NCBI RefSeq assembly: GCF_963921235.1
Contig: NC_086108.1
Location: 15,438,001-15,502,000 of the forward strand
DNA length: 64,000 nt
Source of the DNA: Mobula hypostoma
Taxonomy: Eukaryota
Reading direction: 5' to 3'
In this document: positions 24,157 through 27,986 of the stretch, in pieces
Position numbering within the stretch: position 1 is the first letter of the stretch
How the letters are laid out: the number at the start of each line of letters is the position of its first letter
Made by a program: the position numbers and the translations under genes
Notes under the pieces: model-generated
Told to the model about the DNA's origin: nothing
Database searches by the model: none
What the model saw: the letters and a program-made list of their open reading frames with translations, nothing else

Positions 24157-25216
24157 GTTGACATTTGGGGCCGAAATCCTTTGGCAGGAATAGAGAAAAA
24201 AAGTCCTCCGCCTGGCGGAACTTGTCCTCACTCTCAGTAATTTCTCCTTTGGCTCTTCCCACTTCCTTCAAACAAACGGTGTATCCATGAGCACTCGCAT
24301 GGGTCCCAGCTATGCCTGCTATGTGGAACAGACATGTTCCAAACCTATACTGGTGACTGTCCTGCACTTTTCCTACGCTACATCGATGACTGCATTGGTG
24401 CTGCTTACTTCATCCACTTTGCCTCCAACTTCCACCCTGCCCTCAAAGTTGCCTGGTCCTTTTCCGACCCAGCCTTTCTCAATCTCCCTGTCTCTATCTC
24501 TGGAGACATGTCTATTATAATCCTAAGGACTCTAACAGCTACCTGGACTATACTTCTTCCCATCCTGTTACTTGTAAAAATGGCATCCCCTTCTCTCAAT
24601 TCCTCCACCTTTGCCACACCTGCTCTCAGGATGAAGCTTCTCATTCTAGAACGAAGGAGATGTTCTCCTTTTTCAAAGAAAGGGGCTTCCCTTCTTCCAT
24701 CATCAACTCTGCTCTCAACCGCATCTCATCACTGTTGTGATGAAGTCACACTTGGGTTTGATGAGCGACACCTTGTATTCCATTTGGGTAGCCTCCAACC
24801 TGATGGCATGAACATTAATTTCTTGAACTTCCAGTAATGTCCCCCCAACCCCCCCCCACCACTTCCCATCCTCTTTTCCCTTTCTCACTTTATCCTCTTG
24901 CCCGCCCATCACCTTCCTCTGATGCTCCTCCCCCCTTTTCTTTCTTCCATGGCCTTCTGTCTCTTTCAACAATTTACTTCCCAGCTCTTTACTTCATCCC
25001 TTCCCCTTCAGGTTTCACCTATCACCTTGTGTTTCTCTTTCCCCTCCCCCAGCTTTTAAATCTACACTTCATCTTTTTTTTTCCGGTCCTGCTGAAGGCT
25101 TCGGCCCGAAATGTCAACTGTACTCTTTTCCTAGATGCTGCCTGGCCCACTGAGTTCCTCCAGTATTTTGTGTGTGTTACTCGGATTTCCAGTATCTGCA
25201 GGTATTCTCTTGTTTG
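24157..25216 (+). mobile_element. Penelope-like retroelement remnant (inverted 5' pLTR stub, RT fragment, GIY-YIG tail, 3' pLTR)
   Basis: MSTRMGPSYAC, FLRYIDDCIG and ERHLVFHLGSLQPDGMNINF. 3' pLTR has a decayed hammerhead (ctgctga..gaaatgtc, ~25086-25119). 24157-24203 is a reverse-complement stub of the pLTR. Confidence 0.9.
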
Positions 25217-25226
25217 AGATGGAATA

Positions 25227-25934
25227 AGGTTTGTCCATCGTTATCGATGAAGACCCCGACACCATTAGTACTTTTCATGAGATCGAGTTGCTAGCTCGAC
25301 ACTCAACCCGGCACGGATGGAAACAGTGCCCAGGAGCGGCTCAACTAGATTCAAACTCGGGAACCTTCGCTCCCGGAGTCCGGCGCTGATGTCACTGCGC
25401 CACCGTCCGGCTATTTTGGTGTCGAGACTAGCGCTTGATTTGGATTTAAGTGAGGGAGAGTTGCGCAGCGTCAACCTCACTCTCTGTTCCCAATTCCCAT
25501 CTGGATCCAGTGGCAAGACAAGAGTTGAGACGGCTGGAGATGGGAGTAGGCGCAGTGGATGACCAGGACGTCTTCTGTGTTTTGTCCTGCTCTACATGTT
25601 CCACAACGCTTGCAGAGACTGCCTTCTTGACCGTTGGACCTTCCGTTGGTCTCGTCCGCTCAATCCGCCGGAGTCTGTCTTCACATGCTGGGATAGGCAA
25701 CTCCCTATCTCACCGAGGGTTTGAGACCCATCGGCTACCCTTATCTGGTTTAGCCGGCATGTCGAAGCCATTGCCTGGGGTGTGGCTGCTGTCGCCGCAT
25801 GCAAACAGCTACAGGGAACCACAGGTGAGAACTGAGTTCCAGGTGGGGACCAAAGGTGGACAAACTGCCCTGAGAAGGACGTGACATGTTCCCCCACCAG
25901 AGGTTCTACCCCTCCCTGATGCCCCATACACTCC
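25227..25934 (-). mobile_element. 708-bp non-coding retroposon (RTE-like, tentative) with 14-bp TSD
   Basis: TSD tttgagatg(g/a)a(a/g)ta at 25213-25226 and 25935-25948. GC/CpG-rich and structured, with no recognisable protein. Contains a tRNA-like module at ~25272-25411. Confidence 0.72.
25738..25934 (-). ncRNA. Candidate HDV-like self-cleaving ribozyme (decayed copy)
   Basis: Manual fold: P1 GGAGUGU/ACACCCC, long J1/2, P2 UCUCACCUGU/ACCAGAUAAGG, P3 GGU/GCU, L3 UCCCUGUA, AG-GCAA, P4 UGGC/GCCG, J4/2 GCUAA (catalytic-C equivalent at 25753). Confidence 0.55.
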
Positions 25935-27986
25935 TTTGAGATGAAGTACAATGTTAGAAAATGTATGATAACGCATTTTGGTAAAAGGAACAATAGTGCA
26001 GACTTGACTGTTAACTAAATGGGGATAAGGCTCAAACATCAGAGGTGCAGAGGGACTTAGGAGTCCTTGTGCAAAACTTCCAGAACTTACAGGTTGAGTC
26101 TGAAGGCTAATGCAATGTTGGCATTTATTTCAAGCGGAATAGAATATAAAAGCAAGGAGATAATGTTCAGCCTTTACAAGACACTAGTCAGGTCTCACTT
26201 GAAGTATTGTCAACAGTTTTGGGCCCCATTTCTCATGAAAGGATGTGTTGTCATTGGAGGGAGTCCAGAGGAGGTTCAAGGGATGATTCCAGGAATGAAG
26301 GGGGTTAACACATGAGGAGGGTTTGGCAGATTTGGGCCTGTACTCACTGGAGTTTAGAAGAATGTGCGGGGATCTCATCTCACGGAATGTTGAAAGGACC
26401 AGATAGTGTGGATGTGGAGTAGATGTTTCCTGTGGTGGGGGTATTCCAGAATGAGAGGGCACAGCCTCAAAATTGAATCTTTTAGAACAGAGGTAAGGAG
26501 GAATTTTTTTTAGCCAGAGAGTAGTGATTCTGTGGAATGCTCTGTCACAGTCTGCAGTGGAGGCTAAGTCTGTGGGTATATTTAAAGTGGAAGTTGATTG
26601 TTTCCTGATCGGTCAGGGATTTCAAGGATATGGTGAGAAGCTAGGTGTATGGGGTTGAGTGGGATTTAGGATCAGCCATGATGGAATGGCAGAGCTGACT
26701 TGATGGGCTGAATGGCCTAATTCTGCTCCCATGTCTTATGGTCTTGTGGTATCATTGCTGAGGAAGTGCAGGAGCCTGAAGACGCACTCAGCTTTTGAGG
26801 AACAGCTTCTTCCCTCCACCATTGGATTTCTAAATGGTCCATGAACCGTTCTAAATGGTCTCACTGCTTTTTGCTCTCTTTTTGCACCACAGTACTTACT
26901 TTTTATTTATATTTCTCATTGTTGCTCAAGTATTTTGATGTATGGCACTGTACTGATGCTGGAAAACAACATATTTCAACATATTTCACAATATGCAAGC
27001 ATTTCTTTGTAATTCTTAATGTGATTTTGGAGCCCTTGTTTCCATTCTGAATCACCCCACACTCATTAATTTTCAGTGCATGGATGATACTGGAATGTAG
27101 GAGGTGGACTTTCCATGGAGCATTGGAGGTTGTGATGTGACCTTAAAGAGTTTTATAAAATCATGAAGGGTATAGATAAGGTAGATGATTAGTCTTTTTT
27201 CCAGGATAGGGGTACATAAAACTTAGAGGTCAAAAGTTTAGTGTGCAAAACTTATTAGGAAAAATTTAAAGTGGACCTGAGAGGCGAGTTTTTCACGTGA
27301 CTGTGGTGGATATATGGAAGTGATAAAGGTGGATAGAATTCCAACATTTAAAAAAATTACTTGGACAGGTACTGTACGTAGATAAGAAAGGTTTAAAGAG
27401 ATGCAGACAAATAGGGCTAGCTCAGTTAGGAAACTTGGTTGGCATTTTTGAGTTGAGCCAAAGGGCCTGTTTCAGTGACATTTGTTTGTACACATGGGGA
27501 GATTGAACTCCAAGTCTTTGACTCTTTCAGTGAAGGGTGTGAGAAGTTGAGCCTTGGCCTTGTATGAAGTAACTGGAACACAAATGTCTCCCACTAACTT
27601 GCTCCAGTTTTTCAGTCTGACTCCCTTTCCCACCCCTGGCAGTGAGTGTCCATGACTGGACCTGGCAAGCATGGGTTACCTGGGAGCCATTTCTAAAACA
27701 CTGATTAGAAAATTCAGCTGGAAGACAGCAACCAAATTATGAACAACACAGTGCCACTGAAAGATCATCATACCCTGCTTTAGTGATCTCGTTATTGTGA
27801 TCTGATGAATTCTGTTTATCGATCTATGCATAGAATGTTGGCAGGTTACACTGGGTATTTAATAAACTCAGAGCTATGTAGTATGCCAAATAATCATGAT
27901 TATTGTACAGTTTCAGTGGCTGACCATTTTCATAGCCTCAGAAGAAAACTGCTGTGTTCAAATAGCTTGTTATTTCTCCGTTGCAG

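Follow-up and report, generated by a model that had tools for sequence, protein, structure and literature searches.

A predicted HDV-like ribozyme, probably with a hairpin in L3, heading a decayed RTE-derived element of Mobula hypostoma

An HDV-like ribozyme is predicted at the decayed 5' end of an RTE-derived element in Mobula hypostoma. It likely has an additional 6-bp hairpin at the 3' end of L3 and likely cuts just before the first base of the element (G+1), a reading which we consider probable. Flanked by 9-bp exact target-site duplications (TSDs), the element occupies positions 25934 to 25222, minus strand, of a 64,000-nt stretch of contig NC_086108.1 (the window, to which all five-digit positions refer); it is a single decayed copy from a large family (Table 1). 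It has been established that this family comprises thousands of copies, that 5' ends lie at G+1, that TSDs are present, that there is an autonomous parent with the same head and tail, that the core bases are conserved and that compensatory changes distinguish its lineages.

Ribozyme layout in the window copy and its family

L017, a real genomic copy identical to the majority sequence of 74 copies across 197 nt, served as reference for folding and descriptor work. This copy matches a strict descriptor of the nested double pseudoknot, with P1, P1.1, P2, P3 and P4 in canonical order, and the pair counts agree, upholding the HDV-like layout proposed in a first-pass annotation of this DNA; the strict version is passed by 27 of the 74 copies and failed by the window copy, which passes a relaxed version only. 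The 7-bp P1, which starts at the cleavage-site purine, is paired at 7/7 positions in L017 and in two metagenomic RTE elements (L213 and L234), and at 6/7 in the window copy. Among the 74 copies the J4/2 C is kept in 73, U20 in 73, G25 in 67, and the two G residues of P1.1 in 59 and 72.

Table 1. Coordinates of the element and of its predicted ribozyme parts in the window
Feature	Position	Strand	Remark
5' target-site duplication, 9 bp exact	25935..25943	-	
P1 5' strand, GGAGUGU	25928..25934	-	the element begins with G+1 at 25934, the predicted cleavage site
J1/2 domain	25834..25924	-	closed by a 10-bp P1.2-like stem (fold of L017)
P2 5' strand	25821..25829	-	
P3 5' strand, GGU in the window copy	25818..25820	-	GGC in 52/53 other copies
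8-nt HDV-type part of L3, UCCCUGUA	25810..25817	-	U20, C21, C22 and G25 equivalents
Hairpin at the 3' end of L3	25787..25809	-	6-bp stem and 1 linker base
P3 3' strand GCC, followed directly by P1 3'	25784..25786	-	each base 53/53
P1 3' strand, ACACCCC	25777..25783	-	
P1.1 3' strand and J1.1/4, AGGCAA	25771..25776	-	AG here; GG in most copies
P4/L4	25755..25770	-	two-sided changes in 2/4 pairs
J4/2, GCUAA	25750..25754	-	C at 25753 predicted to be catalytic
P2 3' strand with one bulged C	25740..25749	-	
Remaining RTE 5' UTR	25417..25739	-	ends in a helix 5' arm able to pair with the 3' tail (duplex prediction)
tRNA-like SINE	25272..25411	-	occupies the place of the ORF in the full-length element
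RTE 3' tail	25222..25267	-	
3' target-site duplication	25213..25221	-	

The predicted L3 measures 26-28 nt in the hairpin-bearing sequences (28 nt in this family) and 31 nt in the window copy, the usual HDV-like L3 having about 7-8 nt. That of the CPEB3 ribozyme counts 7 nt (bioRxiv 2022.09.22.508989, excerpt). It had been anticipated that standard searches would miss such a ribozyme, and this was borne out: a descriptor allowing an L3 of at most 9 nt and no insert gave no match in L017, Rfam returned 0 matches at E<=10 for the same copy, and around the window copy it returned only four weak and unrelated matches, with nothing relevant.

All motifs named in the first-pass annotation were recovered in place on the minus strand by a sequence check, including the C at 25753. 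Its attribution of four A-C oppositions to G-to-A decay also holds, the same sites carrying G in 40, 45, 51 and 53 of the 53 other full-length copies used for base counts at defects (core-base counts refer to the 74 copies): 40 at position 3 of the element (25932), and 51 and 53 in the P2 3' strand at 25744 and 25742, respectively. At position 3, A recurs in 10/53 copies and is therefore not purely private decay; copies with U153 (30, of which 15 were parsed) have this A in 3/15 against the background of 10/53, so that within-family covariation of P1 shows no enrichment. The one-base bulge reported in P2 is present, but it is common to the distant RTE ribozymes L223, L226 and L248 near the P3 end of P2 and hence does not reflect decay. 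As for P3, to which two G-U pairs had been assigned, U at 25818 is C in 52/53 copies, and the P3 favoured for the family is a Watson-Crick GGC/GCC. With pairs lost in P1, P1.1 and P2, the window copy is probably slow or dead.

Genomic copies, 5' ends and the parental LINE

In the genome, 3,575 first-look candidates were obtained with the ribozyme stretch as query, and a core pattern gave 1,834 exact matches (912 + 922) versus 0 for its control. The sets used to define 5' ends were chosen by downstream sequence in order to avoid selecting for full length. In the short set, 22 of 29 copies align from positions 1-5 and seven are truncated at 35-227; after removal of one duplicate, 21/28 reach positions 1-7. 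Long copies behave similarly, with 20/29 reaching positions 1-7, one beginning at 12 and eight truncated, which confirms, for most copies, the earlier claim that they start at G+1. The flank upstream of G+1 is unconserved, no base being common to more than 11 of the 21 short copies.

The same genome contains a second short family, F2 (L292-L327; 50 pattern matches), which is older and more diverged. F2 has the same ribozyme layout, including the hairpin, and differs in L3, P4 and the 3' tail. A supposed hairpin-less family in Mobula hypostoma was discarded, its six matches being F2 copies with differing individual deletions.

The ribozyme derives from an autonomous RTE LINE of the same genome, represented by copy L181, which was found by way of locus L005 and another RT query. 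Downstream of its UTR, this copy has a frameshifted ORF that matches an APE-RT protein of 1129 aa (that of L161, over residues 22-1127, in three frameshifted pieces), and it has the same tail at its end. In the short copy L016, positions 1-517 of the element share 94% identity with the 5' end of L181 and positions 519-563 map to its 3' end (tail 84% identical; the tail is also 83-86% identical to the L161 family), and the short element thus consists of the first 517 and the last ~45 bases of the LINE, placed between TSDs. The internal UTR of L181 has 417 candidates in the genome. The claim of a non-autonomous family is therefore upheld, but the ribozyme is not special to it, since it also heads the autonomous L181. 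Two other routes to the parent were abandoned, as the RTE families found through DUF6451 were unrelated to the element and a pattern designed to detect the end of an RTE ORF next to the tail gave 10 matches, none of which proved on inspection to be an ORF end.

By eye, the UTR and tail resemble RTE-3_AMi in the available part of the PMC5786205 supplement (the 25417..25739 region being similar to RTE-3_AMi 147-292). The RT tree contained no named RTE reference. The RTE-clade label expresses this resemblance together with the 1129-aa ORF of L161, which carries Pfam Exo_endo_phos (PF03372) and RVT_1 (PF00078), an APE endonuclease and an RT in one ORF being the domain layout of that clade.

A young related RTE family (L161 and L164-166; members about 96% alike, with an ORF of up to 1129 aa) is without the ribozyme, and since this family has spread, RTE mobility does not require the ribozyme. 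Its members share the downstream UTR and tail with the ribozyme-headed RTE. L161 and L164 begin with a captured piece (L161:381-530 and about 395-500 of L164) whose translation resembles methylmalonyl-CoA epimerase (E 2e-12 to 3rmu_A), and L165 and L166 have another leader; the differing leaders look like 5' switching. Other RTE families of this genome (L101, L108, L117, L118, L174 and L176) open their 5' UTRs with a conserved structured motif of another kind, which ends in a short hairpin and then CUAA and in which the HDV descriptor found no match.

Metagenomic relatives and covariation

Among 77 metagenomic RTE 5' regions, the strict descriptor matches 3 loci in sense and 0 on the reverse strand, and the relaxed descriptor 11 in sense versus 4 on the reverse strand. 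Convincing ribozymes with a short L3 (7-8 nt) head five of these contigs (L223, L226, L236, L248 and L284), and two others bear the hairpin, L213 with an L3 of 26 nt and L234 with one of 28 nt. The 3' strand of P3 abuts that of P1 in all seven, which form P3 with GCG/CGC, ACC/GGU, GCC/GGC or GGC/GCC. Long-L3 matches in L238, L253, L265, L281 and L286 were treated as chance, given that the relaxed descriptor matches 4/77 on the reverse strand. L214 and L220 are readings by eye and not descriptor matches; L220, a close sequence relative, was read as AGC/GCU around a 7-nt loop without the hairpin. In viral contigs, 0 loci were found by pattern and 0 by protein. On a quick RT tree, in which 66 of 92 loci were retained, the hairpin needs at least two gains or losses, a distribution that fits loss or swapping of 5' modules.

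Covariation was assessed over five sequences (L017, the window copy, L303, L213 and L234), which are few and related and for which the structure was drawn from one member; 92.6% of cells pair and 8/41 pairs are changed on both sides, namely one in P1, four in P1.2 (of 10 pairs), one in P2 and two in P4. None of 500 shuffles was as high, a control that is not a probability, and slid partners pair at 32-48%. When P1.2 is left out, 4/31 pairs are two-sided, a level reached by 10/500 shuffles. The P1 5' strand of L234 is misaligned in this alignment and pairs 7/7 on separate reading. In P3 and the hairpin every cell pairs, yet no two-sided change occurs among the hairpin-bearing sequences, the sole pair change of the hairpin being one U-A to U-G; for this reason the hairpin rests on conservation, this U-G change and energy.

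Placement of the hairpin, rival readings and proposed action

For the extra sequence, the best reading is a hairpin within L3, with a GGC/GCC P3 that abuts P1. Our own descriptor accepts two registers for L017, this one with a 28-nt L3 and another in which GGC pairs with GCU and a 20-nt insert separates P3 from P1. The latter had been the main reading of the first-pass annotation, with P3 closing an 8-nt loop and an altered crossover, and it is supported further by the GCU kept in all hairpin-bearing sequences and by L220, in which GCU forms the 3' strand of P3 in the by-eye reading. Nevertheless, it depends on a G-U pair, the invariant GCC has no partner in it, its P3 has a pair probability of 0.00 in L017, all five short-L3 relatives have a P3-P1 junction of zero length, and the GCU of L220, paired with AGC, lies directly on P1 3' and so takes the place of GCC. 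Constrained energies point in the same direction, the L3-hairpin register being more stable in 5/5 sequences by 1.3-5.8 kcal/mol. An insert between P3 and P1 is therefore improbable, and the L3 hairpin is favoured because its P3 is fully Watson-Crick, its P3-P1 junction has zero length and its energy is lower in every sequence; the annotation had itself offered a hairpin-expanded L3 as an alternative, and it is this alternative that fits better. It follows from a hairpin within L3 that the pseudoknot connectivity is canonical and that L3 alone is enlarged, so the variant topology formerly proposed is not retained. Nor is the insert length of 23 nt (25806-25784, minus strand), as the family insert is 20 nt and a 3-nt duplication at 25798-25796 is private to the window copy, being absent from 53/53 other copies. 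In run X9, a single low-depth contig appears to link GGC and a 7-nt loop directly to GCC.

Whether such a fold arises by chance or has lost its activity must also be considered. Nested-only folding energy is no better than that of shuffles (z -0.92 for L017 and -0.17 for the window copy), and support therefore comes from topology and comparison, not from stability. These z-scores near 0, together with the failure of the window copy under the strict descriptor, could suggest chance pairing in a GC-rich repeat; on the other hand, the strict long-L3 descriptor matched 1 of 3000 dinucleotide shuffles of L017 and 0 with P1 at the first base, a slightly stricter one gave 0 matches in 848,360 bases of RT-containing loci, and four helices carry two-sided changes, so that this explanation is already largely refuted and we give it almost no credence. 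A more serious possibility, although still an unlikely one, is that the structure is a non-cutting relic or a protein-binding or protective 5' module, in which the L3 hairpin has disabled or slowed catalysis and an internal promoter sets the 5' end. Protection of the 5' end has been reported for R2 ribozyme folds (PMC13708176, excerpt), a transcription start at G+1 would equally give 5' ends at G+1, and the recent spread of the ribozyme-less RTE relative is compatible with this scenario. Alternative folds are likewise predicted: in the ensemble of L017 the probability of P3 is 0.33 and that of the hairpin about 0.4, and the unconstrained fold of the L3 segment (L017, -9.3 kcal/mol) ties up the G25 equivalent. 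Against it, the catalytic C, G25, U20 and the P1.1 bases are kept in four lineages in which P1, P2 and P4 have changed in concert, and the element begins exactly at the first base of P1.

In a self-cutting HDV-like ribozyme with an L3 hairpin, the reading which we prefer, P1, P1.1 and P4 would be stacked against P2 and P3 as in HDV, with C25753 as the putative general acid and G25812 involved in metal binding. Because the last L3 bases are exposed in the HDV structure, the hairpin would be directed from them away from the core. The roles of C75 and G25 in the HDV ribozyme are treated in the available text of PMC13635239, and L3 belongs to the active site of that ribozyme (PMC4908430, excerpt). 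By analogy with the ribozymes of R2, L1Tc and RTE elements (PMC6765202 and PMC3774820, excerpts), cleavage just 5' of G+1 would free the element from read-through transcripts, and the RTE protein, recognising the 3' tail, would then copy the cut RNA. The P1 5' sequence (positions 1-7) is repeated at element positions 10-16 in 48/74 copies (window 25925-25919; L017:1511-1517), where pairing within the P1.2 stem is predicted to conceal it. If it were exposed, this repeat would offer a cut 9 nt downstream; the P1.2 stem may thus draw P1 and P2 together while concealing the duplicate P1 strand, and may also speed folding as in drz-Agam-2-1, whose P1.2 domain and extended P2 accelerate cleavage (PMC4908430, excerpt).

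The resemblance to known HDV-like ribozymes concerns the order of the pseudoknot, G+1 at the start, UCC..G in L3, a two-pair P1.1, C-N-A-A in J4/2 and a long J1/2, whereas L3, which has 7-8 nt in HDV/CPEB3 and in the five other RTE ribozymes, is enlarged here by the hairpin. A structured, stem-closed J1/2 beside an extended P2 is likewise found in drz-Agam-2-1, for which the available text of PMC4908430 describes added domains in J1/2 only and none in L3. The fungal HDV variants also represent an active class overlooked by earlier descriptors, but they have an E-loop in P4 and one extra P2-P3 base and no L3 hairpin (PMC5640933, excerpt). An L3 hairpin is not described in the available parts of PMC13708176, PMC9901934, PMC4870747, PMC10879173, PMC5640933 and bioRxiv 2022.09.22.508989, and a literature search, which did not extend to Webb 2009, Webb and Luptak 2011 and Ruminski 2011, gave no match for an L3 insertion in HDV-like ribozymes. 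Within the excerpts consulted, known natural insertions lie in J1/2 and P4, and the L3 hairpin would be the new part. Retention of an L3 hairpin in distant retrotransposons would broaden the architecture that the HDV fold tolerates and would imply that short-L3 searches undercount these ribozymes. More tentatively, and with less than even confidence, it may be proposed that an active HDV-like subclass exists across several RTE lineages, in which L3 is a third site for peripheral domains, the hairpin is functional as a cleavage-tuning folding switch or as a handle for the RTE protein, and the whole is a swappable 5' module that passes between RT lineages and has been missed by structure searches.

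Elements made of a parental 5' UTR and 3' tail without an ORF have likewise been described as RTESINE1/2, WALLSI3, MAR4_MD and RTE-N_Lch (PMC5786205, excerpt) and as R2 SIDEs (PMC6765202, excerpt). A ribozyme is expected at the 5' ends of the bipartite RTE derivatives in the available text of PMC5786205, and when four short motifs were compared with the accessible part of its supplement, the UTR motif was matched and the ribozyme was not. In contrast to these bipartite RTE elements, the window subfamily carries a tRNA-like SINE behind the ribozyme. This SINE is present in 10/58 copies examined and sits at the UTR-tail junction, where it and the ribozyme-headed element are mobilised together; it also occurs free in L110, L122, L124 and L169. 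It bears putative A and B boxes, and ARAGORN found no tRNA in it. In the window (25423-25417 with 25267-25254) and in L181, L164 and L213, the last part of the shared 5' UTR block is complementary to the beginning of the 3' tail; full-length elements of different lineages show this with different sequences. The loop of the resulting hairpin is empty or filled by the SINE in short elements and holds the ORF in the parent, and in this model UTR-tail pairing may explain the two-part RTE derivatives.
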